From IMG/VR virus record IMGVR_UViG_3300014205_000019, positions 5,544-69,543 of that record: 64,000 nucleotides of DNA; one strand, 5' to 3'. Below the pieces are notes generated by a model, which saw only the letters and a list, made by a program, of their open reading frames with translations, searched no databases and was not told the DNA's origin. The DNA is from a virus (lineage: Duplodnaviria; Caudoviricetes). The number at the start of each line of letters is the position of its first letter. The first letter of the stretch is position 1. Positions 3,566 through 34,899 of this stretch are shown here, piece after piece. Position numbers and translations under genes: made by a program.

Positions 3566-3942
3566 TACCTCGTCCTCTCATTCACGAATGTCAGTTCCTT
3601 CTCGGCGTCAGCCTCAATGACCTCCTTCAACTCATCGAGCGTGTTAACGAATGTGATTCGTGCTGCCGACACAGCCCCTTCGTGTTGGGTGAAGGCGGCA
3701 ATGTTTAGTGCTGTCTTAATCGGATTGCCTTTCTTGTTGGCGTATCGAATAAGACCAACACACTCAGTAATGTCTCTGTTGTTGATGCCAATAGGCAGGG
3801 CATCCACCCTACCAATCACGGCGTGCCACCCATCCTTAAGGTAAGTACCGAAGGCGTTGCCGCACATGCAGGTAATCACACTGTCTGTGTAGACCTGCAA
3901 CTTCACAATGTCTTGACACTGTAGACAGAGCAGGAGTTTCAT
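3565..3942 (-). CDS. Hypothetical protein with N-terminal Zn ribbon
   Basis: CLQCQD...CMCGN. Confidence 0.7.
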   Translation of the reverse strand: MKLLLCLQCQDIVKLQVYTDSVITCMCGNAFGTYLKDGWHAVIGRVDALPIGINNRDITECVGLIRYANKKGNPIKTALNIAAFTQHEGAVSAARITFVNTLDELKEVIEADAEKELTFVNERTR

Positions 3943-4115
3943 TAGAATTTTCTAACCGCGATAAGTGCGAAAATCATACTAATCGAAATCAAAGCCAACA
4001 TCCCGTTGATAAGGACTTTCACAAAATCCAGTCCTGCAATGGCAATAATAACAATAGTGGTATTGTAAACCACAGAGAAGATGTTAATAGCCATTGCCAA
4101 AATCCACAGAATCAT
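3942..4115 (-). CDS. Small two-helix membrane protein (57 aa)
   Basis: Hand-translated MILWILAMAINIFSVV...LIAVRKF*; TAATG coupling. Confidence 0.6.
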   Translation of the reverse strand: MILWILAMAINIFSVVYNTTIVIIAIAGLDFVKVLINGMLALISISMIFALIAVRKF

Positions 4116-7762: not shown

Positions 7763-8357
7763 GCTTCCTGCTTTCCTGCTCCATGTTGTGCGCCACAGCC
7801 GGGTCGAGCCACTTATAAAGTAGGGCCATGCGGCGATAGATGGACAATTGCTTATGCCAATACGAATTTGTTAGCGGCGCAATCCACGGTACCTCGAAGT
7901 CGGCCACGAACTTCATCCAGTGGGCCTCGGTGCCGTGCGCCTGCTGCTCTGCTGTCAGTGTGGATTTGTTTCCCTCGACCCGCACCATAAGGAAGCCGCG
8001 ATCTTTAAGCACCTGATACTCGTCGGGTAGGCGCACATCATCTACGAAAAAGATACGGGTGCCGAAGCCGTATTGCCGGTCGAAGTCGGCCAACAGTTTG
8101 TCAACCAAGAACGACGGGTTGGCAGCGCGAAGTTCGTCGCCGTATCTTTGTAGGTCTAGGCGGTATTTATTCTTGGTATTAGGATTACGAAGTAGATTGA
8201 TATTAATGTTCTTGTCTAGGGCGTATTGAATCTTAATTGGTGCGGCAAAGGACAGCACGGGTGCACTATAGAAGCGGGCTAGTCCGTCGGCCAGTGTTGT
8301 CTTGCCAGCACCTGCGGGGCCGAAGAAGGCTACTGAGCGTGTAATCTTATACTCCAT
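7752..8357 (-). CDS. Deoxynucleoside monophosphate kinase
   Basis: P-loop GPAGAGKTT, SFAAPIK, LQRYGDELR, DDVRLPDE; ATG at 8357 after AAGGAGG. Confidence 0.8.
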   Translation of the reverse strand: MEYKITRSVAFFGPAGAGKTTLADGLARFYSAPVLSFAAPIKIQYALDKNININLLRNPNTKNKYRLDLQRYGDELRAANPSFLVDKLLADFDRQYGFGTRIFFVDDVRLPDEYQVLKDRGFLMVRVEGNKSTLTAEQQAHGTEAHWMKFVADFEVPWIAPLTNSYWHKQLSIYRRMALLYKWLDPAVAHNMEQESRKHDK

Positions 8358-8667
8358 TAAATGCCTCCTTCTTCGCTTCATAAGCATCGACCGTTTCACA
8401 GGCCGTATCGTCCGAATCACAGTATATCGCATCTTCATTATCGGGCCGAAGGCAAATGAAGCGCGGGCGGCGGAACTTACCAGTTTTAGTCAGTTCCTGA
8501 CACTCAACCTCAATGACCGTGCCAATCGGCAAGAATACGAACTCGGCTCGCTGTTCGTCGGTAAGGCCCACACTGACGCGGCCCATAGACGTTATGAGTG
8601 CGCCAACCTTACCCAAGTACCTGCCTTTGCCCGCCACGAGGCCTGTTACCACAATATCATAGTGCAT
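8347..8667 (-). CDS. Stand-alone DNA-ligase C-terminal OB-fold-like protein
   Basis: GKGRYLGKVGAL...VGLTDEQR...IGTVIEV...LTKTGKFRRPRF matches the ATP-dependent ligase OB pattern; no adenylation domain attached. Confidence 0.65.
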   Translation of the reverse strand: MHYDIVVTGLVAGKGRYLGKVGALITSMGRVSVGLTDEQRAEFVFLPIGTVIEVECQELTKTGKFRRPRFICLRPDNEDAIYCDSDDTACETVDAYEAKKEAFNGV

Positions 8668-8804
8668 TAGCGGCCCACGCCCATTTCCAACCCGCAGCGC
8701 CGACACAGGGCGAACATTAGATGCGGCTGCGTGGAAAATACAAAGTAGTCGTGACCCTCTGTCTTGCACTTTACTTCATATACGTTCGAATCAAAAACAG
8801 CCAT
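8667..8804 (-). CDS. Small Cys/His protein (45 aa)
   Basis: Hand-translated MAVFDSNVYEVKCKTEGH...CRRCG...; SD AAAGGAG. Confidence 0.5.
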   Translation of the reverse strand: MAVFDSNVYEVKCKTEGHDYFVFSTQPHLMFALCRRCGLEMGVGR

Positions 8805-8890: not shown

Positions 8891-8966
8891 TGGTAGCGGC
8901 TGGTGGATTCGAACCACCGTTCTCTTGCTAATGACACAAGCGAGACGACCACTTCTCTAAGCCGCG
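8891..8966 (-). tRNA. tRNA-Met(CAT), initiator-like C1/U72 mismatch but without three G:C pairs in the anticodon stem
   Basis: Cloverleaf, loop GT-CAT-TA, TTCGAAT, ACCA. Confidence 0.8.
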
Positions 8967-8967
8967 A

Positions 8968-9076
8968 TGGTAAGAGGCCGGTACCGTCTACAAATGACGG
9001 CCCGATGCTCCTAAGACTGCTATCGCGGATTCGAACCGCCTCGTCCCCCAACGGGACGCGAACCACTTCCTAGCAG
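8968..9076 (-). ncRNA. Composite RNA 1: compact tRNA-like domain (9017-9076), TCTT, then a CCA-ended hairpin (8968-9013)
   Basis: CTGCTA/TAGCAG stem, GCGG-TTCGAAT-CCGC arm, CGTCC/GGACG arm; then GCCGTC-ATTTGTA-GACGGT hairpin ending ACCA. Confidence 0.65.
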
Positions 9077-9077
9077 A

Positions 9078-9201
9078 TGGTGGGGAGTATCTCTCATATT
9101 CTTATGGGTAAACGAGATACCGCCCAAGACTGTGTTCGAGGATTCGAACCTCACTGCCGTCTTTACAGAGGCCGGTGTGCTGCCAATTACACTACTCACA
9201 G
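9078..9201 (-). ncRNA. Composite RNA 2: degenerate Tyr-like tRNA domain (9130-9201), TCTT, then a CCA-ended hairpin
   Basis: CTGTG/CACAG stem, D arm, CT-GTA-AA-like loop, GAGG-TTCGAAT-CCTC; then GTATCTC/GAGATAC stem ending ACCA. Confidence 0.65.
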
Positions 9202-9202
9202 A

Positions 9203-9277
9203 TGGTTCCAGCGACACGGAATCGAACCTGCTCAGACGGTTTAAAAGACCGCTATGCAACCTTTACATCACGCTGGA
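9203..9277 (-). tRNA. tRNA-Lys(TTT)
   Basis: Cloverleaf, CT-TTT-AA, ACCA. Confidence 0.92.
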
Positions 9278-9278
9278 A

Positions 9279-9361
9279 TGTTCCTTCACGGAGGGATCGA
9301 ACCTACCACTTCTTACTTTGTTTACCTTAAGTAAGCGTACTACCGTTGTACTAGCGAAAGA
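9279..9361 (-). tRNA. Atypical tRNA-like gene with 14-nt anticodon loop and 3' ACA
   Basis: Acceptor TCTTTCG/TGAAGGA, stem CTTAC/GTAAG around TTAAGGTAAACAAA, T-loop TTCGATC. Confidence 0.6.
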
Positions 9362-9435
9362 TGGTTCGGGATTAAGGATTCGAACCCTAACTAAGTGGTT
9401 CAGAGCCACTCGACCTACCTTTAGTCTAATCCCGA
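9362..9435 (-). tRNA. tRNA-Gln(CTG)
   Basis: Cloverleaf, CT-CTG-AA, ACCA. Confidence 0.93.
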
Positions 9436-9436
9436 A

Positions 9437-9513
9437 TGGCGACCCTGACGGGAGTTGAACCCGCTGCCTCTTCCTTGACAGGGAAGTGTGCATAACCGTT
9501 ACACTTCAAGGCC
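9437..9513 (-). tRNA. tRNA-Asp(GTC)
   Basis: Cloverleaf, CT-GTC-AA, GCCA. Confidence 0.93.
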
Positions 9514-9515
9514 AT

Positions 9516-9591
9516 TGGTACCACACGACAGAATCGAACTGTCAACCTTTCGCGTATCAGGCGAATGCTCTAACCGTTGCGCTAGTGTGGC
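9516..9591 (-). tRNA. tRNA-Ile(GAT)
   Basis: Cloverleaf, CT-GAT-AC, ACCA. Confidence 0.93.
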
Positions 9592-9592
9592 A

Positions 9593-9666
9593 TGGTGGGT
9601 TATCAGAGAATCGAACTCTGGTGGGCGTGGTAAGAGCACGCTAGTCTACCACTGACTTAATAACCC
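9593..9666 (-). tRNA. tRNA-Lys(CTT)
   Basis: Cloverleaf, CT-CTT-AC, ACCA. Confidence 0.93.
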
Positions 9667-9667
9667 G

Positions 9668-9755
9668 TGGTGCAAGGTGTAGGATTCGAACCTACGAAGC
9701 CTGTTAGAGCCTCGGTTTTACAGACCGCTTACTTTGTCCGCTTGTATAACCTTGC
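9668..9755 (-). tRNA. tRNA-Tyr(GTA)
   Basis: Long variable arm, CT-GTA-AA, ACCA. Confidence 0.93.
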
Positions 9756-9756
9756 G

Positions 9757-9831
9757 TGGTAGCCCCAACGGGACTCAAACCCGTTTCCAGAACTTGAAAG
9801 GTTCTTATCCTAATCCATAGACGATGGGGCC
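9757..9831 (-). tRNA. tRNA-Glu(TTC)
   Basis: Cloverleaf, CT-TTC-AA, ACCA. Confidence 0.92.
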
Positions 9832-10121
9832 ATGCGATTGAAAGTACGAACAGCGTGGCAGTTAGCACATACTATTTCGCACTTCATTAACTCATCCACC
9901 AGTTTGTCAAGTCCGACTCTGTGATAATGAGCAATGTTAAATTTCTTTTCACCTTTTACATGGTCGAACTGCATAGCGGCTTCGTGATATTGTACACCAC
10001 AATCCTTACAAGGCTTGTCTTTCCATGCTAAAACAACTTGGCGCAGTAGATTGGCCCGTTCGTATATCTGAGCCTTTCTCTTGTCCCTATTGTTTTGGTA
10101 ATAGGTCTGATTGTAATTCAT
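9810..10121 (-). CDS. HNH endonuclease 1 (homing-type)
   Basis: CKDCG...QFDH...CEIVCANCHAVRT; stop lies inside tRNA-Glu. Confidence 0.85.
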   Translation of the reverse strand: MNYNQTYYQNNRDKRKAQIYERANLLRQVVLAWKDKPCKDCGVQYHEAAMQFDHVKGEKKFNIAHYHRVGLDKLVDELMKCEIVCANCHAVRTFNRMAPSSMD

Positions 10122-10125
10122 CAGA

Positions 10126-10199
10126 TGGTACCCCTTGACAGAATCGAACTGCCGCTGGATGTGTGTAAAACATCTACACTACCATTATGTTAAAGGGGC
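10126..10199 (-). tRNA. tRNA-Val(TAC)
   Basis: Cloverleaf, TT-TAC-AC, ACCA. Confidence 0.92.
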
Positions 10200-10200
10200 T

Positions 10201-10233
10201 TGGCAGGAGGGACGGTGTTGGGCCCGCCCTCCT
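10201..10233 (-). ncRNA. 33-nt CCA-ended minihelix
   Basis: 7-bp AGGAGGG/CCCTCCT plus CGG/CCG, G discriminator, CCA; 1-nt spacers. Confidence 0.7.
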
Positions 10234-10234
10234 A

Positions 10235-10308
10235 TGGCTCCACATCAAGGAATCGAACCCTGATAGCAACGTTAACAGCGTCGCGTCTTACCGTTAGACG
10301 AATGTGGA
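10235..10308 (-). tRNA. tRNA-Asn(GTT)
   Basis: Cloverleaf, CT-GTT-AA, GCCA. Confidence 0.93.
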
Positions 10309-10309
10309 A

Positions 10310-10395
10310 TGGTACACCTAGAGGGACTCGAACCCCCATGAACTTTCGTTCGCTGCGTTCTAAGCGCAGTATGTCTGCCGTTTCATCATAGGTGC
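10310..10395 (-). tRNA. tRNA-Leu(TAG)
   Basis: Long variable arm, CT-TAG-AA, ACCA. Confidence 0.93.
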
Positions 10396-10396
10396 A

Positions 10397-10433
10397 TGGT
10401 GACCTGTCTACATTCTATTTCAAATGGTGGGCC
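10397..10433 (-). ncRNA. CCA-ended spacer RNA (weak local hairpin, strong long-range complement)
   Basis: GGCC/GGTC plus CATTT/GAATG stems, ACCA end, internal ACCA at 10425-10428. Confidence 0.45.
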
Positions 10434-10434
10434 G

Positions 10435-10509
10435 TGGTGCCGCCTGTGGGTATCGCGCCCACTACCTCTGGTTTTTCAGACCAGCGCTCTACTATTGTGC
10501 TAAGGCGGC
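10435..10509 (-). tRNA. tRNA-Phe(GAA) with non-canonical T-loop
   Basis: CT-GAA-AA; T-loop CGCGATA; D-loop without GG; ACCA. Confidence 0.88.
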
Positions 10510-10557
10510 TTAGATAGGTCAGGCAAATTCCGTGGAGTTCGCCCGACCCACTAACTT

Positions 10558-10583
10558 TGGAGCCAGAGGATTCGGATTCTGGC
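10558..10583 (-). ncRNA. 26-nt CCA-ended microhelix
   Basis: GCCAGA-ATCCGAATCC-TCTGGC, U discriminator, CCA. Confidence 0.7.
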
Positions 10584-10584
10584 A

Positions 10585-10672
10585 TGGTGTCAATGAGGGG
10601 ACTCGAACCCCTACGCGCCGTGGGCGCACTACGTTCTCAGCGTAGCCTGTTTGCCAATTACAGCACATCGAC
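10585..10672 (-). tRNA. tRNA-Leu(GAG)
   Basis: Long variable arm, CT-GAG-AA, ACCA. Confidence 0.93.
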
Positions 10673-10746
10673 TGGTCAGGGTAGGGAGAATCGAACTCCC
10701 GTCTTACCGTTCCAAGCGGCATACGTTACCACTACACTATACCCTG
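10673..10746 (-). tRNA. tRNA-Pro(TGG)
   Basis: Cloverleaf, CT-TGG-AA, ACCA. Confidence 0.93.
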
Positions 10747-10747
10747 A

Positions 10748-10804
10748 TGGTGCCGCCCTTGGGGATTTGCTATTCGCACCCCTACAGCCTTGGAGACGGG
10801 CGAC
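10748..10804 (-). ncRNA. 57-nt mini-tRNA without anticodon arm
   Basis: 7-bp GTCGCCC/GGGCGGC, tiny hairpin, GGGG/CCCC arm, ACCA. Confidence 0.7.
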
Positions 10805-10805
10805 A

Positions 10806-10891
10806 TGGCGGACTCTGTGAGATTCGAACTCACGGGGCTTGCACCCACTAGTTTAGCAAACTAGGTCGTTAAACCACTCCGACAAGAATCC
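10806..10891 (-). tRNA. tRNA-Ser(GCT)
   Basis: Long variable arm, TT-GCT-AA, GCCA. Confidence 0.93.
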
Positions 10892-10892
10892 G

Positions 10893-10927
10893 TGGTGGGC
10901 CTGCCTCATGTTGATTGCTGCAAGCCC
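10893..10927 (-). ncRNA. 35-nt CCA-ended minihelix
   Basis: GGGCTTGC/GCAGGCCC stem, ACCA, 1-nt spacers. Confidence 0.7.
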
Positions 10928-10928
10928 G

Positions 10929-10961
10929 TGGTGGCCCCTCCCGTATAAAGCGCGAGAGGCC
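10929..10961 (-). ncRNA. 33-nt CCA-ended minihelix
   Basis: GGCCTCTC/GAGGGGCC plus CG/CG, 7-nt loop CTTTATA, ACCA. Confidence 0.7.
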
Positions 10962-10962
10962 G

Positions 10963-11038
10963 TGGTGACGCATAGGGGATTCGAACCCCTGACTTCTACC
11001 TTGAGAGGGTAGCGTCCTAACCGCTAGACGAATGCGCC
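10963..11038 (-). tRNA. tRNA-Glu(CTC)
   Basis: Cloverleaf, CT-CTC-AA, ACCA. Confidence 0.93.
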
Positions 11039-11040
11039 AT

Positions 11041-11139
11041 AGAAGGAAGGGAGAGTGTGGATATTGTTTGGCAATATCGCGGCCCACCCTCTGCCTCTTC
11101 CCTCCGTGGGGGTTCCGAGTCCGCATCTCTTGGCTCGGT
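11041..11139 (-). ncRNA. Putative structured leader RNA (long irregular hairpin)
   Basis: GATATTG/CAATATC apical stem, purine/pyrimidine outer stem, 5' CCGAG/CTCGG hairpin; starts right after the promoter. Confidence 0.4.
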
Positions 11140-11145
11140 CTTACA

Positions 11146-11174
11146 ATTATAGCACAATGACAACTAGTTGTCAA
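11146..11174 (-). promoter_or_regulatory. Internal consensus sigma70 promoter with overlapping 16-bp palindrome
   Basis: TTGACA-N17-TATAAT with TG; TGACAACTAGTTGTCA at 11158-11173. Confidence 0.88.
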
Positions 11175-11194
11175 GTACCCTTGTAAGTTTATTT

Positions 11195-11269
11195 TGGTAC
11201 CCATATCAGGACTCGAACCTGACTTCTATCTTTAGGAGAGATAGGTAATATCCACTATACTATATGGGC
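11195..11269 (-). tRNA. tRNA-Arg(CCT)
   Basis: Cloverleaf, CT-CCT-AA, ACCA. Confidence 0.9.
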
Positions 11270-11484
11270 GGGTGACAGGAACACATACAATCAAAGTTTC
11301 TACACTGTTGGTGGAACCACGAACGTGTGGCTCTGTAGTCTAGGGCACACAATACTGAAAGAGTTGTGTTGGGGCCTAATTTATTCAGCATACTCTTTTG
11401 TGTGAGACTAAGAGAGTTTTCTACTCTACAATCTTTTGTGTGGCCCGACCCAACAGGTAGGTGACACGAGATGCAGTTTTCCAT
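11260..11484 (-). CDS. Cys-rich small protein, CxNF[DE]CxCxCH family member 1
   Basis: C-terminal QCRNFDCMCSCH; stop inside tRNA-Arg(CCT). Confidence 0.7.
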   Translation of the reverse strand: MENCISCHLPVGSGHTKDCRVENSLSLTQKSMLNKLGPNTTLSVLCALDYRATRSWFHQQCRNFDCMCSCHPPI

Positions 11485-11501
11485 AGGTATCCTTTCGAAT
11501 A

Positions 11502-11587
11502 TGGCGGAAAGGGCGAGAGTCGAACTCGCAAGGCTTACGCTCGTCCGTTTTCAAGACGGGTTCCGTTGCCAATCGGATAACCTTTCC
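11502..11587 (-). tRNA. tRNA-Ser(TGA)
   Basis: Long variable arm, CT-TGA-AA, GCCA. Confidence 0.93.
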
Positions 11588-11588
11588 G

Positions 11589-11630
11589 TGGTGGGGTACC
11601 CGGCGTCACTCGGGAGACTTTCTTTACCCC
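11589..11630 (-). ncRNA. 42-nt three-way mini-tRNA
   Basis: GGGGTA/TACCCC, AGA-AAG-TCT mini-hairpin, CCCG-8nt-CGGG arm, ACCA. Confidence 0.7.
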
Positions 11631-11631
11631 G

Positions 11632-11706
11632 TGGTGCCCTCGTTGGGAATCGAACCCAAACCTCAACCTTCGCAGGGTTGCATCGTATCCGTTGGACTAC
11701 GAGGAC
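11632..11706 (-). tRNA. tRNA-Arg(GCG)
   Basis: CAACC-CT-GCG-AA-GGTTG, ACCA. Confidence 0.9.
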
Positions 11707-11951
11707 TGTTCGTGACAACTACATTCACAATCAAAATTCTTACAAAAGTAGTGAGCAGTCCTGTAGTTTTCTGAAACATAATCAAAAATGTTTCCGGGAT
11801 GTGTACAAGCCTTACTAACTAATTTGTTAAGCCAATTGAAATCTTCTCCACTTTCAGGACAGTTTACGAAATGATAAAAGTTATGTCCTTTGTGTACTCT
11901 CTGTTTACAAACGTCGCAAACTACATAACCGTCGCTGGTTTCTCGTGGCAT
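11697..11951 (-). CDS. Cys-rich small protein, family member 2
   Basis: FCKNFDCECSCH; ATG at 11951; stop inside tRNA-Arg(GCG). Confidence 0.72.
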   Translation of the reverse strand: MPRETSDGYVVCDVCKQRVHKGHNFYHFVNCPESGEDFNWLNKLVSKACTHPGNIFDYVSENYRTAHYFCKNFDCECSCHEQSS

Positions 11952-11966
11952 GGTGTGACCTTTCAC
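11951..11966 (-). ncRNA. 16-nt CCA-ended tetraloop hairpin carrying the SD of the next ORF
   Basis: GTGA-AAGG-TCAC-ACCA; the last A is the A of the ATG. Confidence 0.5.
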
Positions 11967-11967
11967 A

Positions 11968-12043
11968 TGGAGCAGGATATGGGAATCGAACCCATTACCT
12001 CTTCTTTACCAAAGAAGTGTTCGTCCGTATGAACTTAACCTGC
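11968..12043 (-). tRNA. tRNA-Thr(GGT)
   Basis: TT-GGT-AA, TCCA. Confidence 0.9.
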
Positions 12044-12184
12044 ATTCTTCTTATGACACCGACAGCCGCAATCAAAATTTGCACACTTACTGTGGAACTC
12101 CTGAATTCGCGGGTCGGCCGACATAGTTGCATGGAAGCAATATCCGCTTTTAAGAGTGTTTAATTCTTCTCTTATAGTCGTCAT
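12035..12184 (-). CDS. Cys-rich small protein, family member 3 (49 aa, not in ORF track)
   Basis: Hand-translated MTTIREELNTLKSGYCFH...KCANFDCGCRCHKKNAG*; stop inside tRNA-Thr. Confidence 0.72.
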   Translation of the reverse strand: MTTIREELNTLKSGYCFHATMSADPRIQEFHSKCANFDCGCRCHKKNAG

Positions 12185-12327
12185 TATGATGCGTGACATT
12201 TACACTGACACTCGAAGTTTGCACACTTTCTGTGTAAGTCGGCAGCCACGCGTAAATGTTGGGCCGACTCTGCTGCATAGCAGTAACGTGATAGAACCTC
12301 ATTATACATATTAAATATGTTTCCCAT
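12184..12327 (-). CDS. Cys-rich small protein, family member 4 (47 aa)
   Basis: MGNIFNMY...YCY...KCANFECQCKCHAS*; TAATG coupling to member 3. Confidence 0.72.
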   Translation of the reverse strand: MGNIFNMYNEVLSRYCYAAESAQHLRVAADLHRKCANFECQCKCHAS

Positions 12328-12330
12328 AGT

Positions 12331-12344
12331 TGGTACCTTTCGGT
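12331..12344 (-). ncRNA. 14-nt CCA-ended GAAA-tetraloop hairpin carrying an SD
   Basis: ACC-GAAA-GGT-ACCA then ACT ATG. Confidence 0.45.
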
Positions 12345-12345
12345 A

Positions 12346-12420
12346 TGGTAGCCCCTGTAGGAATCGAACCCACATCACAACGTTCGAAGCGTCGCGTCGT
12401 ATCCATTAGACTAAGGGGCC
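12346..12420 (-). tRNA. tRNA-Arg(TCG)
   Basis: CT-TCG-AA, ACCA. Confidence 0.92.
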
Positions 12421-12429
12421 AAGGTGCCC

Positions 12430-12774
12430 TTAACGGGCTAGTTGGGCTGTGCTTAGAATGGCTAGAACGGTTTGCCACTCGGTATTACCATAAAGTGTAT
12501 CATCAATTAAAACTGCTGTGGCTGTATGTAAACCATCGAGGGTTTGGTCGTCCTCAAAAAATGGAGCATGTGATATGCCAGAACCCGATAGGTGAAATAG
12601 TAGTTTAGACATTTGTTGAGTATTACCACCCTCTACAATCACGAGGGTCTTGTGTTCTTTGGCCCATTTACGCGCCTTCTTGTCTTTGAGTAAGATTTCG
12701 GCTACGGCGTGTGCCGCCTGAATACCCTTTTGCATCGTTGAAAGATGCGAGTGAACAACTACATAGAGTTTCAA
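12430..12774 (-). CDS. Peptidyl-tRNA hydrolase 2 (PTH2)-like protein
   Basis: KLYVVVHSHLSTMQKGIQAAHAVAE resembles the PTH2 N-terminal motif (K-x-A-Q-x-x-H-A); later TLVIV and HTATAV segments; 114 aa. Confidence 0.7.
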   Translation of the reverse strand: MKLYVVVHSHLSTMQKGIQAAHAVAEILLKDKKARKWAKEHKTLVIVEGGNTQQMSKLLFHLSGSGISHAPFFEDDQTLDGLHTATAVLIDDTLYGNTEWQTVLAILSTAQLAR

Positions 12775-12857
12775 CTTCTATTCCTTATCTCGCAGGCACA
12801 AAAATTACACTCTCTTGCGTGTAAAAGGTGACCACATTTACAAAGTCGAACTAGCAT
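12771..12857 (-). CDS. 28-aa Zn-finger-like peptide
   Basis: Hand-translated MLVRLCKCGHLLHARECNFCACEIRNRS*; SD GAAAGGAG. Confidence 0.55.
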   Translation of the reverse strand: MLVRLCKCGHLLHARECNFCACEIRNRS

Positions 12858-12861
12858 AGTT

Positions 12862-12879
12862 TGGTGCTCCTTTCTAAGC
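12862..12879 (-). ncRNA. 18-nt CCA-ended hairpin carrying an SD
   Basis: GCTT-AGAAAG-GAGC-ACCA then AACT ATG. Confidence 0.45.
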
Positions 12880-12880
12880 A

Positions 12881-12965
12881 TGGTACAGCCTACGGGATTC
12901 GAACCCGTACTCCGTTAGGAACCAATTTTTAAGATTGGCGTGTCTACCGATTTCACCACGGCTGC
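12881..12965 (-). tRNA. tRNA-Leu(TAA)
   Basis: Long variable arm, CT-TAA-AA, ACCA. Confidence 0.93.
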
Positions 12966-12966
12966 A

Positions 12967-13010
12967 TGGTGGGACGCTCCGGGCAAATTCGGAGAAGCAC
13001 TCTTCATCCC
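12967..13010 (-). ncRNA. 44-nt three-way mini-tRNA
   Basis: GGGATG/CGTCCC, AAG-AGTG-CTT mini-hairpin, CTCCG-8nt-CGGAG arm, ACCA. Confidence 0.7.
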
Positions 13011-13011
13011 G

Positions 13012-13097
13012 TGGCGGACAGGGGGAGATTCGAACTCCCGACCCTTTCGGGTACTACTTTTCCAGAGGAGCGCACTAGACCACTATGCGACCTGTCC
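13012..13097 (-). tRNA. tRNA-Ser(GGA)
   Basis: Long variable arm, CT-GGA-AA, GCCA. Confidence 0.9.
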
Positions 13098-13448
13098 TTG
13101 TCTACGATTAAATGTTCTTATAGCATGACAATTAGCACATACTATCTCACATTTACTAATTTCTAAGAGAATTCTTTTCCAACTTATATTGGTGGTAATC
13201 CCTCTACTTATGTTGAATACTTTATCTTCTCCAATGTGATCAAACTGCATGACCGCATAATGGTATTGTACTCCACAATCAGTACAAGGAACTTCCTTTA
13301 ATTTCCTAATAAAATTACTTCTTTGGTCGTATCGTTCGAAGAAGTAATTTTTTCTACAAGATTTGCACCAAGATTGTTTTGTTCCTGTTTTCTTTTTGAA
13401 AAAGTTTATTTCTGGTAAGTGTTGGTCACATTTAGAACAGTAAAACAT
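13083..13448 (-). CDS. HNH endonuclease 2 with N-terminal Zn finger
   Basis: CSKC...WCKSC, CTDCG...QFDH...CEIVCANCHAIRT; ATG 13448 after AAAGGAG; stop inside tRNA-Ser. Confidence 0.85.
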   Translation of the reverse strand: MFYCSKCDQHLPEINFFKKKTGTKQSWCKSCRKNYFFERYDQRSNFIRKLKEVPCTDCGVQYHYAVMQFDHIGEDKVFNISRGITTNISWKRILLEISKCEIVCANCHAIRTFNRRQGQVA

Positions 13449-13463
13449 TTTGCTCCTTTGTGA

Positions 13464-13540
13464 TGGTACGGGTAGGGGGATTCGAACCCGCCACTCTTTC
13501 GCATATAAGGCGATGGCATTAACCGTCATGCTATACCCGC
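13464..13540 (-). tRNA. tRNA-Ile(TAT)
   Basis: TCGC-CT-TAT-AT-GCGA, ACCA. Confidence 0.85.
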
Positions 13541-13541
13541 G

Positions 13542-13600
13542 TGGGGCCGGTAGCAGGGACTCGCACCCTTGTATCTAGAACACTACTACTTTGTACCGGC
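13542..13600 (-). ncRNA. 59-nt mini-tRNA with acceptor and T arm, no anticodon arm
   Basis: GCCGGTA/TACCGGC, AGGG-TGCGAGT-CCCT, C discriminator, CCA. Confidence 0.7.
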
Positions 13601-13601
13601 A

Positions 13602-13676
13602 TGGTGGAGACTACGGGAATCGAACCCGTGATTCTTCTTTGCAAGAGAAGTGTGTTACCTCTAGCACTAAGTCCCC
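13602..13676 (-). tRNA. tRNA-Ala(TGC)
   Basis: CT-TGC-AA, G3:U70, ACCA. Confidence 0.94.
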
Positions 13677-13801
13677 GAAGCCCTACCAACCCGGAGGTAG
13701 TAGGGAAGAGTTTGTTGCCAACCTAACAGCAGGCCATTACGCCGCCATTTAAAGGATTCTGGTTTGCTGGCTCTCCCAATCCTTTTTCGATTGTAATTAC
13801 T

Positions 13802-14172
13802 GCAATGATGCTTAATAGCCCGGATTCTGTCAGGCCCGGTATGTAACGACGTAATTACTCGTCTCCCTGCTGGCCTGTACTGACATCTCCCTCACAACGG
13901 AATACCATCCCCGTCGTGGCCTGCGTCTAAAGCATGGCTGCCCCCTACCATATTTGGGGTTACTCGCCCGCTCCTGTACCCCGTTTCACTCGGCAAGCAA
14001 TAAGCCGATATCGTCACTGTTGGCAGGAACTCTTGCCCTTGCTAGTGGGCAGGCCGACCTTATTAGAGTCGAGCGGTTTTACATGGGTACCACCCCATGT
14101 GCGAGGCCGGAACTTGTTCCTCTATAATGTTTACCTTGCGGAACATTACAGCGTCAGAGTCCACATCATTAC
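13802..14172 (-). ncRNA. rnpB: RNase P RNA (bacterial-type ribozyme), about 371 nt
   Basis: P1 GTAATGATGT/GCATCATTGC; P2 CTGAC/GTCAG; P3 GTAATGTT/AACATTAT; P4 5' GAGGAACAAGTTCCGG (14107-14122) and 3' ACAGAATCCGGGCTA (13816-13830); GTGAAACG and CAAATA landmarks in the expected order. Confidence 0.8.
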
Positions 14173-14181
14173 TATTTGGTA

Positions 14182-14197
14182 TGGTGTCCTTGCGGAC
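14182..14197 (-). ncRNA. 16-nt CCA-ended GNRA hairpin just before the RNase P RNA
   Basis: GTCC-GCAA-GGAC-ACCA, followed by a second TACCA. Confidence 0.55.
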
Positions 14198-14198
14198 G

Positions 14199-14275
14199 TG
14201 GTGCTTGTCGTGGGATTCGAACCCACACTGTTACGTTTTTGAGACGTATCCCTCTGCCAATTGGAGTACACAAGC
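14199..14275 (-). tRNA. tRNA-Leu(CAA) with short variable loop
   Basis: TACGT-CT-CAA-AA-ACGTA, 5-nt variable region, ACCA. Confidence 0.85.
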
Positions 14276-14276
14276 A

Positions 14277-14352
14277 TGGTAGTCGCTACTGGATTCGAAC
14301 CAGTTTATCACGCTTATGAGACGTGCATCTTAACCCTGTTGATTCAGCGACC
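14277..14352 (-). tRNA. tRNA-Met(CAT), elongator (Ile2 not excluded)
   Basis: CT-CAT-AA, paired 1:72, ACCA. Confidence 0.85.
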
Positions 14353-14353
14353 G

Positions 14354-14423
14354 TGGTGCGAGTTGCTAGTCCGATTCGAACGGACGTATGTGCGACATAC
14401 CTACCTTGATTATGTAGCAACTC
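14354..14423 (-). ncRNA. 70-nt tRNA-like RNA with 9-bp acceptor and collapsed anticodon loop
   Basis: GAGTTGCTA/TAGCAACTC, GTATGT-CGC-ACATAC, GTCCG-TTCGAAT-CGGAC, GCACCA. Confidence 0.7.
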
Positions 14424-14521
14424 ATTCAATCTCTGTACTTTACTTCACCCACTCGACCAGCAGGTACCCTTAAATACTGGTTGTCTTAGCAGAGGACTGT
14501 ATTTCTGACCAGAGACTGAAT
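14424..14521 (-). ncRNA. Putative ~100-nt multibranch RNA without CCA
   Basis: 12-bp closing stem ATTCAGTCTCTG/CAGAGATTGAAT with inner ACCAG/CTGGT stem. Confidence 0.4.
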
Positions 14522-14525
14522 AGAG

Positions 14526-14553
14526 TGGCGAGAGTGTGCCCTCGTCAACTCGC
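14526..14553 (-). ncRNA. 28-nt CCA-ended microhelix
   Basis: GCGAGT/ACTCTC stem with one mismatch, GCCA end. Confidence 0.5.
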
Positions 14554-14554
14554 A

Positions 14555-14644
14555 TGGAAGATAGGGTGGGATTCGAACCCACGGAGCAAATCAATGCTCT
14601 CTCGTTTTCGAGACGAGTGCCGTAAGCCGCTTGGCTACCTATCC
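14555..14644 (-). tRNA. tRNA-Ser(CGA)
   Basis: Long variable arm, CT-CGA-AA, TCCA. Confidence 0.92.
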
Positions 14645-14645
14645 G

Positions 14646-14726
14646 TGGTTGGTGTCCTTGAAGAAGCCCGTCAGTAGATTATTTCTTCATTAGTCTACTG
14701 TTCTCACGTCACGGGACAATAAGGAC
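14646..14726 (-). ncRNA. 81-nt rod-like RNA ending ACCAACCA
   Basis: GTCCTT/AAGGAC, CCGT/ACGG and CAGTAGA/TCTACTG stems. Confidence 0.6.
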
Positions 14727-14727
14727 A

Positions 14728-14802
14728 TGGTTGAGGAAGTAGGATTCGAACCCACACCGTTTCGGTTCAAAGCCGAAAGACCTACCGTTAGTCTATTCCT
14801 CA
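14728..14802 (-). tRNA. tRNA-Gln(TTG)
   Basis: CT-TTG-AA, ACCA. Confidence 0.93.
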
Positions 14803-14803
14803 A

Positions 14804-14879
14804 TGGGGCGGAGTACGGGAATCGAACCCGCATTTACCGGGTCACAGCCGGTCGCTTGTACCAATAAGTTAACTCCACC
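14804..14879 (-). tRNA. tRNA-His(GTG)
   Basis: CT-GTG-AC, G-1:C73, CCA. Confidence 0.93.
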
Positions 14880-14880
14880 G

Positions 14881-14955
14881 TGGAGAGCCTAGCCAGAGTC
14901 GAACTGGCCTAAAGTAGTTTTGCAGACTACTGCCTTGCCGCTTGGCTATAGGCTC
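14881..14955 (-). tRNA. tRNA-Cys(GCA)
   Basis: CT-GCA-AA, U73, CCA. Confidence 0.93.
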
Positions 14956-14956
14956 A

Positions 14957-15002
14957 TGGTGCCCGGCCTACCTACGGTTCAATTACCGAATTGAGACTAG
15001 GC
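14957..15002 (-). ncRNA. 46-nt CCA-ended mini-tRNA
   Basis: GCCTAG/CCGGGC stem, CAATT-CGGT-AATTG arm, ACCA. Confidence 0.6.
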
Positions 15003-15003
15003 A

Positions 15004-15077
15004 TGGTGCAGCATGGGAGAATCGGACTCCCGCGTCAACGTTGGCAACGTTGCATTGTACCATTCAATTAATGCTGC
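15004..15077 (-). tRNA. tRNA-Gly(GCC)
   Basis: TT-GCC-AA, T-loop TCCGATT, ACCA. Confidence 0.9.
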
Positions 15078-15151
15078 TGGCACGGTGTGTAGGAATCGAA
15101 CCCACGTCTAGAGTTTTGGAGACACTAGTATTACCATTATACGAACACCGC
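15078..15151 (-). tRNA. tRNA-Trp(CCA)
   Basis: CT-CCA-AA, GCCA. Confidence 0.92.
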
Positions 15152-15152
15152 A

Positions 15153-15226
15153 TGGAGCATCATGCCGGTGCTGCCCCGGCGACCTCTGCTTGGAAGGCAG
15201 ATACGTTTCTGTTACGCCAATGATGC
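15153..15226 (-). tRNA. tRNA-Gly(TCC) with remodelled elbow
   Basis: CT-TCC-AA; T-loop GGCAGCA; D-loop without GG; U73 CCA. Confidence 0.85.
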
Positions 15227-15553
15227 TTGATATCTGTCGTATGTTCGTTGTCTGTGACAGTTAGAACAGACAAGTTCACACTTCTTGATTTCGTTTAATA
15301 TTCTTTCTTCACTGTAGGTTTGTCGTACCATAACCGAAATTTCTTTGAATTTCTTTTCATTTCCAAGATGGTCAAATTCCATAACATATGGGGGATATTT
15401 TATACCACAATCGGTACAGGGCTTATTTTTAAGACTATTTACAAACTCAAGTCTTTTCGTCCTGAGTTCCTTGTTCTTAAGGATATATTGTTCCTTATTT
15501 CTTTGGTAGTGTGTTAGTCCATCGACTTCACATTGAGAGCCTTCTTTCTTCAT
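15212..15553 (-). CDS. HNH endonuclease 3
   Basis: CTDCG...MEFDH...CELVCSNCHRQRT; own promoter; stop inside tRNA-Gly. Confidence 0.85.
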   Translation of the reverse strand: MKKEGSQCEVDGLTHYQRNKEQYILKNKELRTKRLEFVNSLKNKPCTDCGIKYPPYVMEFDHLGNEKKFKEISVMVRQTYSEERILNEIKKCELVCSNCHRQRTYDRYQASLA

Positions 15554-15561
15554 TACTTCCA

Positions 15562-15590
15562 ATTATATCATATTTTGGAAGTTTTGTCAA
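15562..15590 (-). promoter_or_regulatory. Consensus sigma70 promoter
   Basis: TTGACA-N17-TATAAT with TG; ATG 8 nt after the -10 box. Confidence 0.88.
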
Positions 15591-15711
15591 GTATGGAAGG
15601 CAGATTTCATACCATTAGAACAACGTCCCGTAACCTTACTTCTTACGCCTACGTGGGCCTATCGCGGCCTCCATGAGCGCCTTACCTATAATGTCTGCTG
15701 TGATGGTCTTT

Positions 15712-16020
15712 CTATCGGTCGTCGGACTCGTATTCTTCTTGCGAGTCGTCTTGCCTGTAGTATTCTTGCTTGCCATGCGTGAACCTCCGTGCCCTGCGAA
15801 CCGCCTCGGGAGGGGCTAGGGCCAGCACCTCGACAGGGAGGGCTTCCGTTCTCCCCTTCGGGGAGGGTGTCGCCTCCTGCTCGGTCAAATAACGGTGTCG
15901 CCCACAACTTATGCAGACGATTTTGTCCTCCGAGTGGATGCGCCCCATGCCCTGCCCGTATACAATATACCCGGCTTGGTATTCAAGGAACCCACCACAA
16001 TGTTCTCGGGGACACTTCAT
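15712..16020 (-). CDS. Zn-ribbon protein with acidic tail
   Basis: CPREHCGG...CISCGR. Confidence 0.6.
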   Translation of the reverse strand: MKCPREHCGGFLEYQAGYIVYGQGMGRIHSEDKIVCISCGRHRYLTEQEATPSPKGRTEALPVEVLALAPPEAVRRARRFTHGKQEYYRQDDSQEEYESDDR

Positions 16021-16106
16021 TACTTCTTCTTTCCGCCCTTCTTCTTAGGTGCGTCGTCTTTCTTCATCCAAGGTGGTAACTTCTTAGCCTTCTTCTTTAC
16101 TGGCAT
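16020..16106 (-). CDS. 28-aa Lys-rich peptide
   Basis: Hand-translated MPVKKKAKKLPPWMKKDDAPKKKGGKKK*; SD GGGGGTG; TAATG coupling. Confidence 0.6.
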   Translation of the reverse strand: MPVKKKAKKLPPWMKKDDAPKKKGGKKK

Positions 16107-16129
16107 TCATTCACCCCCGTGTTATTTAT

Positions 16130-16203
16130 TGGAGCACGCACCCGGAATTGGGCCGAGAATTGGATTTTACGAGAATCCCGTCTTACCGTTAGACTATGCG
16201 TGC
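16130..16203 (-). tRNA. tRNA-Thr(CGT)
   Basis: CT-CGT-AA; T-loop CCCAATT; TCCA. Confidence 0.88.
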
Positions 16204-16204
16204 A

Positions 16205-16278
16205 TGGAGCCGAAGCGGGGAATCGAACCCCGGTAGCCGCTTTACAAGAGCGGTGCAGTACCACTGTGCTACTCCGAC
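16205..16278 (-). tRNA. tRNA-Thr(TGT)
   Basis: CT-TGT-AA, TCCA. Confidence 0.93.
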
Positions 16279-16279
16279 A

Positions 16280-16354
16280 TGGCGCCCCGCAGAGGAATCG
16301 AACCCCTATGATAACTTTAGAAGAGTTATGTCCTGTCCGTTGAACGAGCGAGGC
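16280..16354 (-). tRNA. tRNA-Arg(TCT)
   Basis: CT-TCT-AA, GCCA. Confidence 0.93.
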
Positions 16355-16718: not shown

Positions 16719-16747
16719 TTGACAAACACCGCCTTTCGTGGTATGAT
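16719..16747 (+). promoter_or_regulatory. Rightward sigma70 promoter (packaging/virion module)
   Basis: TTGACA-N17-TATGAT with TG. Confidence 0.8.
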
Positions 16748-17082: not shown

Positions 17083-17545
17083 TCCTTTGATTGGTGCTGG
17101 TGGTCTTATTGAGAATCTCAGTGACGACCAGCAGCGTTTCCTTGTGGCTAAGATGTTTGGCTCCACAGATGTTGGAGCGGCTCGTGCGTGCAATATAAAC
17201 GAAAACACGATGCGAAGTTGGAAGCAGCAAGACCCTGAATTCAAAGAGGTCTATCGGCTTGTTACAACTCAGCCCATCGAAATGGCCGCTCAGGTATCTG
17301 CCTTTGGATTTGCTAAGGCTATTGACTCGATTGTACGTATGATGGATTCGAACGACATTAAGGTTGTTCAATGGGCCATCGAGCGTATGTTGTCAATTGC
17401 CTCAGTAGGCAAGCAGCGTATCGAGGTCACACACAAAGAAGATAAGGGGGTGAGTGATCAAGATGTCGATGTTATCCTCAACAGACTCGAACAACGAAAA
17501 CAACAACGAAATGAATCCGATGGAGAAGGCTCTAGAGTTCTTTAA
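16988..17545 (+). CDS. Probable terminase small subunit
   Basis: HTH-like AARACNINENTMRSWKQQDPEFK; directly before TerL. Confidence 0.65.
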   Translation: MTSNPLLNLMELKSQQSKEIENEELQVLYQTNPLIGAGGLIENLSDDQQRFLVAKMFGSTDVGAARACNINENTMRSWKQQDPEFKEVYRLVTTQPIEMAAQVSAFGFAKAIDSIVRMMDSNDIKVVQWAIERMLSIASVGKQRIEVTHKEDKGVSDQDVDVILNRLEQRKQQRNESDGEGSRVL

Positions 17546-19067
17546 GTGTAAAGACGATATAAAGTATTTCGCTGAAAACTATATATACATTAACGACCCG
17601 CAGACCTATAGTACCTTCAAGTTCGAGGCGTGGGATTTTCAGAACGAACTGTTCGATACCTTTGACAAGTACAATAAGACTATTGTTCTTAAGGGCCGAC
17701 AGTTGGGTGTCTCGTGGTGTGTGGACATCTTTGCCCTTCACCGTGTTATGTTTTTTAACAACTCCAACGTGCTAATTCTTTCGAAGAGAGAGGACGAGGC
17801 ACAGCAGATGGTTGCCAAAATTAAGTTTATGTTTAACCATATGCCAGAGTGGATGCGCGCCGAACGTCCGGTTCATGGACGCGATGGCGGTAACAAAAAG
17901 GAAATGATTCTTGAAAAGAAGAACTCATCCGGTCAACTAGTTCATAGGGGCCGGGTTCTTGCGTTGCCTGCTACTAAGGATGCTGGACGTTCTGAGACAG
18001 CCTCTATCGTAATCGCAGATGAGTGGGCCTTCCACAAGTACGCTGAGGAAAACTGGACGGCTATCTCGCCTACCATCGACTCGGGCGGTAAGTTCATCGG
18101 GGTGTCTACGGCCAACGGTCTAGGCAACTTCTACTACAAACAGTGGAAGTTCGCAGAGCGCGGAGGTAATGGCTTCGAGGCTGTGTTCCTCTCCTACGAT
18201 CTAAGACCGGGACGTGACGAAGTATGGTATGAAGAGACTAAGCGCGGCTACCGCGATGAGAAACTCTTCCACCAAGAATACCCGCGTTCTCCTATGGAAG
18301 CCTTTATTACTACAGGTGGTTGTATCTTTGACCTAGAAGGCTTGCAGTTCCTTGCCGACAATGTTTGCAAGGAGCCTATGAAGTTCGAGGCGCTATCCAA
18401 GAATACCGGAATCGCCGAACTTGTAAAGCAATGGCCCGAAGTAAAGGTCTGGCATTTGCCCCGTACAGGTGCTAAGTATGTGGTGGGTTCTGACCCGGCT
18501 GGTGGCGATGCAGGTTCTGACTTCTCAGCGGCCTACATTCTAGATATTCTATCTAACGAACAGGTGGCTTCTATTCACGGTCGCATCGACCCTAACAACT
18601 TTGCCGGTCTAGTGGCGCAACTTGCTGAACTCTACAACAATGCTCTAGTAATCGTTGAAAGAAACAACCACGGTTACGCCGTACATGATGCACTTAAGAA
18701 CCAGTACAACTATAACAATGTGTTCACATACAGGAAGGATAGACAGTTCTCAGATGGCGACAACAAAGTTGGTATGCCTTCCAACTCTAAGACTAAGCCT
18801 ATTATGGAAACACATCTTCAAGTAAAAATACGAGAACGTCAACTAACTGTTTACGATTTGGACTTTGTATTCGAGGCGCAGTCCTATGTTCGCAAGGGCA
18901 ACGGACGAACTGGCGCAGATTCGGATGATGAGTTCGACGACCGGGTATCGGCTATGATGCTGGCGGTCATGGCAATGGAACACGGTGGAGTCTCCAAGGC
19001 TCGTGCCGCAGGGTATCAAGTAAGAAGCAAGGTTGCTGGACACTTTAGGACGAGGCACAGAAAATAA
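17454..19067 (+). CDS. terL: Terminase large subunit
   Basis: LKGRQLGVSW, IADEWAF, STANG, GSDPAGG...SDFSAA, ERNNHG, DDRV; start may be 17511. Confidence 0.93.
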   Translation: MIKMSMLSSTDSNNENNNEMNPMEKALEFFKCKDDIKYFAENYIYINDPQTYSTFKFEAWDFQNELFDTFDKYNKTIVLKGRQLGVSWCVDIFALHRVMFFNNSNVLILSKREDEAQQMVAKIKFMFNHMPEWMRAERPVHGRDGGNKKEMILEKKNSSGQLVHRGRVLALPATKDAGRSETASIVIADEWAFHKYAEENWTAISPTIDSGGKFIGVSTANGLGNFYYKQWKFAERGGNGFEAVFLSYDLRPGRDEVWYEETKRGYRDEKLFHQEYPRSPMEAFITTGGCIFDLEGLQFLADNVCKEPMKFEALSKNTGIAELVKQWPEVKVWHLPRTGAKYVVGSDPAGGDAGSDFSAAYILDILSNEQVASIHGRIDPNNFAGLVAQLAELYNNALVIVERNNHGYAVHDALKNQYNYNNVFTYRKDRQFSDGDNKVGMPSNSKTKPIMETHLQVKIRERQLTVYDLDFVFEAQSYVRKGNGRTGADSDDEFDDRVSAMMLAVMAMEHGGVSKARAAGYQVRSKVAGHFRTRHRK

Positions 19068-33699: not shown

Positions 33700-34899
33700 A
33701 TGGCTGTTTCAGTAAATAGTGGTATGCGTACTATCTTCGATGGTTCGTATACTGAAAGGTTGAATGTATCAGAATTCATTGATGCTATCGACCCTCGTGA
33801 GATTCCCCTTCTGGCTATGCTAGGATGGAACATCGACGGCGGCGTTAGTGGCGGTGCAGATTCTCTAGCATTCCCATGCTTCAACACAACACATACATGG
33901 CAGAACGACCAGTTGATTCCACAGAATGGAACACTGTCCGGTGCCTACACCAGTGGTGGTCTTACACTTGACTTTACAACGGGACAAGGTTCCTATGTAA
34001 AGGTGGGAGATTATCTTAAGGTTAATGACGCTTACTACGTTGTTGCTTCTATCTCTACAGATGCTGTAACCGTAGTTCTTTTGGATGGCGAGTCTGATAG
34101 TAACCACGATGCGGGCGACCGATGGGACAACCTCGGTACTCTTCGCGTAGATGGTGCTGAGTTCTCTGACCGCTTCCTATCTACCGACCTCAGCAGCACT
34201 TCCAACTACACTCAGATTTTCCACGAGGAAATCAGCGTATCTGGAACCAGCGAGTCTGTAGAGAAGTTTGGAATCACCGACGAGTTCGACCGTGAGTTCG
34301 CTAAGAAGTTCCAAGAAATGCTTATCCGATTGGAGAAGGCTGCTATCTACGGCACCAAGAACTCCCTACCTGCTAACAACGCCACACTTGCTGACGTTCG
34401 CCGCATGGGTGGACTTGCCGAGTTTATTCGCTACAACTCTAGCGCAGTAAGATACGACGCCGCTGGTGCCAATCTTACAGAGGCAATGCTTGTTGACCGC
34501 CTAGAGTCCATTTGGGAACTTGGTGGAAAGCCTAACATGATTATGGTAGGCGCTCGACAGCAGCGACGTATCTCTTCTTGGGCTGCCCCTTACGTTCGCA
34601 CCACACGCGATGAGAATTCCGTGGGTGTTATCGTGAACCAGTACGAGAGTGACTTCGGTGCTATTGACATTGTTCTTAGCCGTAGCATGAATCCAGACGA
34701 CTTGGTAATTCTTACCACCGACTACATTGGTATCGGCCCTCTATCTGGTAACGGCAACTCTCGTGCATTCTTCGTAACTCCAATCCCTGTTGACGGCGAC
34801 CGTAAGAAGGCTGCTATCACTGGTGAGTACACGATGGAAGTACGTAACGCAACAACGGCCCACGGCTGGATTTACGGTCTAGGCACAAGTCTTTCATAA
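33700..34899 (+). CDS. Major capsid protein, SU10/DUF5309 type
   Basis: THTWQND, NYTQIF...VSGT, LEKAAIYG, RRMGGL, YESDFG, GEYTMEVRN motifs. Confidence 0.85.
   Translation: MAVSVNSGMRTIFDGSYTERLNVSEFIDAIDPREIPLLAMLGWNIDGGVSGGADSLAFPCFNTTHTWQNDQLIPQNGTLSGAYTSGGLTLDFTTGQGSYVKVGDYLKVNDAYYVVASISTDAVTVVLLDGESDSNHDAGDRWDNLGTLRVDGAEFSDRFLSTDLSSTSNYTQIFHEEISVSGTSESVEKFGITDEFDREFAKKFQEMLIRLEKAAIYGTKNSLPANNATLADVRRMGGLAEFIRYNSSAVRYDAAGANLTEAMLVDRLESIWELGGKPNMIMVGARQQRRISSWAAPYVRTTRDENSVGVIVNQYESDFGAIDIVLSRSMNPDDLVILTTDYIGIGPLSGNGNSRAFFVTPIPVDGDRKKAAITGEYTMEVRNATTAHGWIYGLGTSLS

Follow-up and report, generated by a model that had tools for sequence, protein, structure and literature searches.

A 371-nt element inside the tRNA array of a phage genome is almost certainly a homologue of RNase P RNA that is under selection. 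We consider it probable that this phage RNase P RNA gene is real and that it encodes a strongly diverged, class-B-like ribozyme that matures the tRNA transcripts of the phage itself. RNase P RNA is considered a housekeeping ribozyme found in all cells. A full-text literature search, covering only a minority of the subscription journals, returned no paper in which a virus was reported to encode one. The stretch of DNA analyzed here (the window) is a 64,000-base part of a virus record of 69,543 bases, which carries direct terminal repeats and is rated 100% complete by CheckV.

Detection and conserved core of the RNase P RNA gene

At the Rfam gathering score, nothing but tRNAs was reported. The 522-base gap between tRNA-Ala(UGC) and tRNA-Leu(CAA), at 13677-14198, was searched permissively with Rfam cmscan. 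On the minus strand, this search gave a match to RF00011 (RNaseP_bact_b) at 13811-14166, covering model positions 1-365 of 365, with a score of 48.9 bits and an E-value of 2.3e-12. When RF00011 was searched against the whole record, it matched at a single place (E 7.2e-14), and RF00010 (RNaseP_bact_a) gave no match in the whole record at E<=10. RF00011 was also the best and only Rfam RNase P match for the two relatives tested (L015 and L016). Its gathering cut-off of 97 bits was not reached in any of these cases (48.9 bits for the window, 14.8 for L016 and 16.7 for L015). Since the P1 helix pairs 14172-14163 with 13811-13802, beyond the ends of the RF00011 match, the RNA spans 13802-14172 (Table 1). 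The z-score of the single-sequence fold was only -1.99 and is uninformative alone.

The original prediction, made from the letters of the DNA, had placed an RNase P RNA at the same coordinates as those obtained from the P1 ends. Most of its structural content was borne out by the model match, which is significant with RF00011 though below the cut-off and lacking with RF00010, and by the homologues described below. P1, P2, P3 and both P4 strands, said to pair, do so in four out of four sequences. The landmarks, said to occur in the right order over about 371 nt, align as CR-I to CR-V to the RF00011 consensus blocks. The variant P4 context (GAGGAACAAGUUCCGG at 14122-14107) is kept as GAGGA[A/G]CAAGUUCCGG in all homologues.

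Table 1. Positions in the window of the RNase P RNA, its parts and neighboring features. Double-changed pairs are those changed on both sides among the four homologous sequences.
Feature	Position	Strand	Remarks
Whole RNase P RNA gene, 371 nt	13802..14172	-	Ends set by 10-bp P1 helix; full-length RF00011 match
P1, 5' strand	14163..14172	-	Pairs with 13802-13811; 10/10 paired in 4 sequences, 3 pairs double-changed
P2, 5' strand CUGACG	14152..14157	-	Pairs with 13880-13885; C-G to U-A in L016
P3 hairpin	14122..14151	-	12 pairs, 7 double-changed
CR-I: J3/4 with 2 extra bases (AGAGGA-AC) and P4 5' strand AAGUUCCGG with bulged U	14107..14122	-	Aligned to RF00011 GAGGAAAGUCC
P5.1 hairpin, class-B-specific, loop GUGGUA	14081..14100	-	Outer register differs in relatives (AA bulge)
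P7 5' strand, P8 hairpin (loop CUAAUAA), P9 hairpin	14034..14076	-	Double-changed pairs: P7 1, P8 3, P9 3
P10/P11, J11/12 AACAGUGACGA (CR-II), P12 hairpin, J12/13-like GUGAAACGG (CR-III)	13973..14027	-	RF00011 alignment and homologues
P15 with 10-nt loop AAAUAUGGUA	13942..13959	-	Matches RF00011 AACCCAAAuUUUGGUAGG; invariant but for one base
P15.1-like hairpin (conserved bulged A) and P18 hairpin	13893..13938	-	2 and 3 double-changed pairs
P19 with extended inner hairpin	13832..13876	-	Double-changed pairs: outer helix 2, inner 2
J19/4 GACAGAAU (ACAGAA of CR-V)	13824..13831	-	Invariant; matches RF00011 ACAaAA
P4, 3' strand CCGGGCUA	13816..13823	-	7/7 pairs with 14107-14114 in all four sequences; forms CR-V with J19/4
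tRNA array	8891..16354	-	36 ARAGORN calls; candidate substrate of the RNase P RNA
Nearest upstream sigma-70-consensus promoter	15562..15590	-	TTGACA, 17 nt, TG-TATAAT, 12/12
Large terminase	17454-19067
3,277-aa ORF	22975-32808	+	Downstream of terminase
Major head protein	33700-34899

All five conserved regions, CR-I to CR-V, are present in canonical order and are invariant or nearly so among the four phages, CR-I varying at one A/G only. They correspond to five conserved sequence blocks. The first, AGAGGA[A/G]CAAGUUCCGG, is formed by J3/4 and the P4 5' strand, and the second, CAACAG..ACGA, by J11/12. The third block, UGAAACGGGGUACAGG, contains J12/13 and the 3' strands of P11 and P10. The fourth, AACCCCAAA.AUGGUAGGGG, is made of P15 and L15 and includes the GGU pairing with the tRNA CCA end. 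Finally, AGGGAGAU and GACAGAAUCCGGGCUAU make up the fifth block, with J18/2, J19/4 and the P4 3' strand. The L15 GGU lies at 13947-13949; it is invariant in the family and, by its sequence, is the predicted CCA-binding motif.

Homologues, covariation and comparison with known RNase P RNAs

Relatives were reached by way of terminase protein homologues, which led to syntenic contigs of uncultured phages. Contigs with a terminase identity of 65-67% carry 33-35 tRNAs upstream of the terminase. Homologues of the RNase P RNA were recovered at L016:4767-5140, L015:5755-6147 and L022:3281-3657, the last by a metagenome scan with the L15 motif. The same scan yielded L023, identical to L016, and L024, which was discarded as a chance match. 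The homologues always lie between tRNA-Ala(UGC) and tRNA-Leu(CAA), as in the window. Together with the window they form four distinct sequences, with pairwise identities of 67-84%, and the RF00011 matches of L016 and L015 run over the full length of the model. With blastn, none of 50,697 phage records matched the element, and two 21-nt family motifs had no match in IMG/VR. An exact search of IMG/VR for the 16-mer GAGGAACAAGTTCCGG hit 13 loci, all of them chance matches with no further similarity.

The structure was counted on an alignment of only four distinct sequences (alignment A2); it was taken from the RF00011 alignment and is partly derived from those same sequences. P2, P5.1, P7 and the P4 pseudoknot were added from the RF00011 alignment. 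Unaided, RNAalifold recovered P1, P3, P5, P8, P9, P10/11, P12, P15, P15.1, P18 and P19 on alignment A2, and the full structure comprises P1-P5, P5.1, P7-P12, P15, P15.1, P18 and P19 plus the P4 pseudoknot. Standard pairs occupied 98.0% of cells, a value that fell to about 40% when the partners were slid by 1-3 columns. Pairs changed on both sides amounted to 32 out of 98, versus 2-4 in the slid controls. The observed pairing values were reached by none of 500 shuffles; related sequences can beat shuffles without any structure, and more weight attaches to the slid controls and to the number of double changes. At least one compensatory pair was present in every helix save P4, P10/11 and P15, which never vary. 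Being invariant, P4 has no covariation support within the family. The broken P12 cells in L015 result from a one-column alignment slip, and by eye UCACC pairs with GGUGA. Of the unpaired columns 116 of 169 were invariant, and of the paired ones 117 of 195, the pattern that would be expected if the single-stranded core were constrained by function. Altogether, the comparative analysis shows that the predicted fold of the element is that of an RNase P RNA.

These data bear directly on the possibility that the element is a captured fragment of a host rnpB gene, decaying and functionless in the phage. Its sub-threshold Rfam score and the loss of one class-B helix would suit such a passenger. However, 32 compensatory pairs and 98% of cells paired, in synteny in four phages, would not be expected from it, and the 67-84% identity of the homologues rules out a single recent clone. 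A bacterial source of the P4 variant was not found by exact matching of both strands in the genomes of 185,579 species: the only two contigs with both variant strands, from MAGs, had no nhmmer similarity to the element and no tRNAs, and were rejected as unrelated chance matches. We regard a decaying passenger as very improbable and, because of the compensatory changes, exclude it.

An antisense protein-coding gene on the opposite strand was also considered, and is hardly credible. Runs of 90-100 open codons do exist on the plus strand in all four copies, the middle part being in one frame, and the window has an ORF at 13934-14242(+). Variable columns are nevertheless spread evenly over the codon positions (21/60, 20/59 and 21/59), the frame is lost across indels of 1 and 2 nt, and the ORF of the window runs into the antisense of tRNA-Leu. 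With no codon periodicity, no maintained frame and no conserved start codon, antisense coding was rejected, and the open codons are probably an effect of composition.

Compared with class B RNAs (RF00011, Bacillus subtilis rnpB type), the phage RNA has its helices in the same order, among them P5.1, a P15/L15 of the hairpin type with GGU, P15.1, P18 and P19. The class-B-specific P5.1, P15.1 and P19 are all present and paired, P15.1 and P19 with double-changed pairs. Motifs common to both are ACAGUGACGA, UG.AACG.GGUA, AACCC.AAAU.UGGUAGG, AGA.AGAUG and ACA.AA. Three features of the phage RNA depart from class B. It has two extra J3/4 bases immediately before P4. Its P4 strands are AAGUUCCGG/CCGGGCUA instead of AAGUCCAUG/CAUGGCUU; the nine-base length of P4 and its bulged U are canonical, whereas the pair adjoining the bulge is U-G rather than C-G and the outermost one A-A rather than A-U. 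P10.1 is absent, with 8 nt in place of about 40 nt in all homologues. P19 is also enlarged by a covarying inner hairpin. Finally, the gene is viral and lies within a tRNA array, where it has neither a promoter of its own nor an rnpA gene as partner.

With class A RNAs (RF00010, E. coli M1 RNA) the phage RNA shares the catalytic core (P1-P5, P15, P18 and the P4 pseudoknot), and it has CCGG in P4 as class A does, but it contains no sequence for P6, P13, P14, P16 and P17. Class B RNAs are otherwise known from Bacillota and Mycoplasmatota, and the class B type hints at a host or donor in one of these phyla. GOLLD and ROOL are likewise non-coding RNAs found among phage or prophage tRNA genes. However, they have no homology to RNase P, whereas the homology of the phage RNA points to a defined activity. 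GOLLD sits within a cluster of 32 tRNAs (PMC6582537).

The tRNA array, transcription and proposed role

Over the array (8891-16354, minus strand) Rfam counts 37 tRNA genes, versus 36 by ARAGORN. CCA is encoded in 35 of the 36 ARAGORN tRNAs, the exception being a doubtful call. Concerning the spacing of these genes, the original prediction held in part: spacers of 0-1 nt had been claimed, such that one cut would mature a 5' end and free the upstream CCA. Spacers of 0-2 nt were found at 14 junctions between annotated tRNAs, and CCA occurs 0-2 nt upstream of +1 in 26 of the 36 tRNAs. Where CCA stands 0-2 nt before +1, a single RNase P cleavage at the junction would bring the 3' end on its upstream side close to completion.

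The tRNA strand has four perfect (12/12) sigma-70 promoters, each with an extended -10, at 16774-16746, 16490-16462, 15590-15562 and 11174-11146, and a fifth one (11/12) points in the opposite direction at 16719-16747. Between the promoter nearest upstream of the RNA (Table 1) and the RNA itself, no terminator-like site was seen on the minus strand. The sole terminator-like site downstream of the RNA on that strand, at 8852-8838, is located past the last tRNA. Given this promoter and this terminator, the RNA probably belongs to a polycistronic tRNA transcript that would start near 15562.

In vivo, the RNase P RNAs of bacteria depend on the RnpA protein, and between E. coli and B. subtilis the class A and class B RNAs and their proteins can functionally replace one another. 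The statement that no RnpA-like protein is encoded in the window extends to the complete genome: PF00825 was absent from the six frames of all 69,543 bases at E<=10. Since the phage has no RnpA gene, a host RnpA would be the likely partner. We propose that the RNA would be transcribed together with the tRNAs of the array, from a promoter of host type, and then excised from the polycistronic transcript. It would pair with the host RnpA protein and remove the 5' leaders from the CCA-encoding pre-tRNAs of the phage, an activity suggested by the retention of the catalytic core, of the T-loop-reading modules and of the L15 GGU. Its purpose may be to supply RNase P capacity for some 36 closely packed tRNAs, independently of the expression of host rnpB during infection. 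Because the catalytic and substrate-binding motifs are intact, ordinary RNase P activity is the most economical reading. We think it likely that the element works as a ribozyme in tRNA 5' processing, together with host RnpA.

A different substrate preference can be imagined, in which the altered J3/4-P4 region and the trimmed S-domain shift the ribozyme towards CCA-ended hairpins or tRNA-like spacer units. Such a retuned ribozyme might work with a phage protein that is not related to RnpA, or with no protein. For only 15 of the 26 tRNAs preceded by CCA does an annotated tRNA lie there, which implies that many spacers end in CCA-terminated units other than tRNAs. One such hairpin, GUCC-GCAA-GGAC-ACCA at 14182-14197, directly precedes the RNase P RNA, and similar hairpins precede the homologues in L015 and L022. 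The absence of P10.1, the altered J3/4 and the lack of RnpA in the phage are also in keeping with retuning. Nevertheless, the modules recognizing the tRNA elbow are kept and invariant, which fits ordinary tRNA substrates, and no candidate cofactor was identified. Retuning is unlikely in our view. The original prediction had suggested that the ribozyme is perhaps tuned to elbow-less tRNAs and minihelices. This found no support: the elbow-reading S-domain modules ACAGUGACGA and GUGAAACGGGGUA are retained, and P10.1 alone is missing. It is equally doubtful that the array and the ribozyme together form an autonomous viral RNA-maturation module as opposed to a spare copy of the host enzyme.

An ORF inside the array (12430-12774, minus strand) matched the peptidyl-tRNA hydrolase PTH2 (PF01981) with 27.4 bits, for a cut-off of 23. 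The syntenic ORF of L016, at 3698-4057, gave the same weak PTH2 match.

RNase P RNAs in other phage arrays

In a more distantly related phage contig, with a terminase 48% identical to that of the window (L018, 69.8 kb, 36 tRNAs), a class A RNase P RNA of the canonical type lies at L018:1640-1999 on the minus strand. This RNA scores 207 bits with RF00010, above the cut-off of 100. It is located at the far end of the array, in a different place from that of the window RNA, with which it shares no nhmmer similarity. Its presence beside a 36-tRNA array indicates that large arrays in this clade are repeatedly accompanied by RNase P RNAs, and not always by the same one. If the array and its ribozyme were indeed an autonomous module, class A in this relative and a class-B-like RNA here would amount to repeated, independent capture by one phage lineage.

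The RNA of L018 is also relevant to the idea that the window element is a catalytically weak or dead decoy or regulator, which would bind host RnpA or pre-tRNAs and thereby alter host tRNA maturation. The unusual P4 region, the low Rfam scores and the lack of a phage RnpA could be explained in this way. However, the catalytic-core motifs, the bulged U and the GGU are invariant although the phages differ at 16-33% of positions, and a sponge would need none of them. Moreover, the RNA of L018 is fully canonical. We hold a decoy function to be improbable, and retain the processing ribozyme as the preferred interpretation.

A diverged RNase P-like RNA was detected in an unrelated, GC-rich IMG/VR fragment, 3300005253_000238 (L031/L032), at L032:1251-1558 on the minus strand, between tRNA-Gln and tRNA-Asp. 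It scores 25 bits with RF00010. The S-domain motifs ACAGUGACGA and GUGAAACGGGGUACAG are common to this RNA and to that of the window. Its P4 is GAGGAACCUCCGG/CCGGGGUAU, with, as read by eye, C-G at one pair where the window has G-C. In L019, L021 and L026, which have 1-4 tRNAs upstream of the terminase, no RNase P RNA was seen within up to 10 kb on each side. Among arrays with at least 24 tRNAs that cover the relevant stretch, five out of five carry an RNase P RNA of some class, in what is a small sample. The array of L028 is truncated at the end of the contig, and the gaps in it look as if they code for protein. In one of these gaps (L028:2519-3219, minus strand), an HNH-type endonuclease motif, CVDHNHETGEVRGLLCSDCN, was read by eye; selfish nucleases seem to be common in these tRNA arrays.

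A phage with its own RNase P RNA would mean that phages with large arrays can be limited by tRNA 5' maturation, or be vulnerable at this step, and would add a ribozyme to the translation-related genes that viruses carry. The family also provides naturally occurring variants, kept by selection, of the catalytic P4/J3/4 region and of an S-domain without P10.1. With scores of 15-49 bits against a cut-off of 97, its members are missed by routine annotation, so that such genes are probably under-counted.

Besides the terminase and the major head protein (Table 1), the phage genome encodes a DNA polymerase, a helicase and a ribonucleotide reductase. The 3,277-aa ORF matched no PHROG family and gave one weak, sub-threshold match in Pfam; its counterparts in relatives are of similar size (3,240-3,350 aa). 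In its genome size, its terminal repeats and its giant ORF, the phage is reminiscent of N4-like phages, by analogy only, the ORF resembling the N4 virion RNA polymerase in nothing but size. Finally, a 140-aa ORF adjoining the array (8347-8769, minus strand) has no more of an ATP-dependent DNA ligase than the OB-fold and the C-terminal part (PF14743, PF04679); a longer ligase gene, or a split one, may end here.
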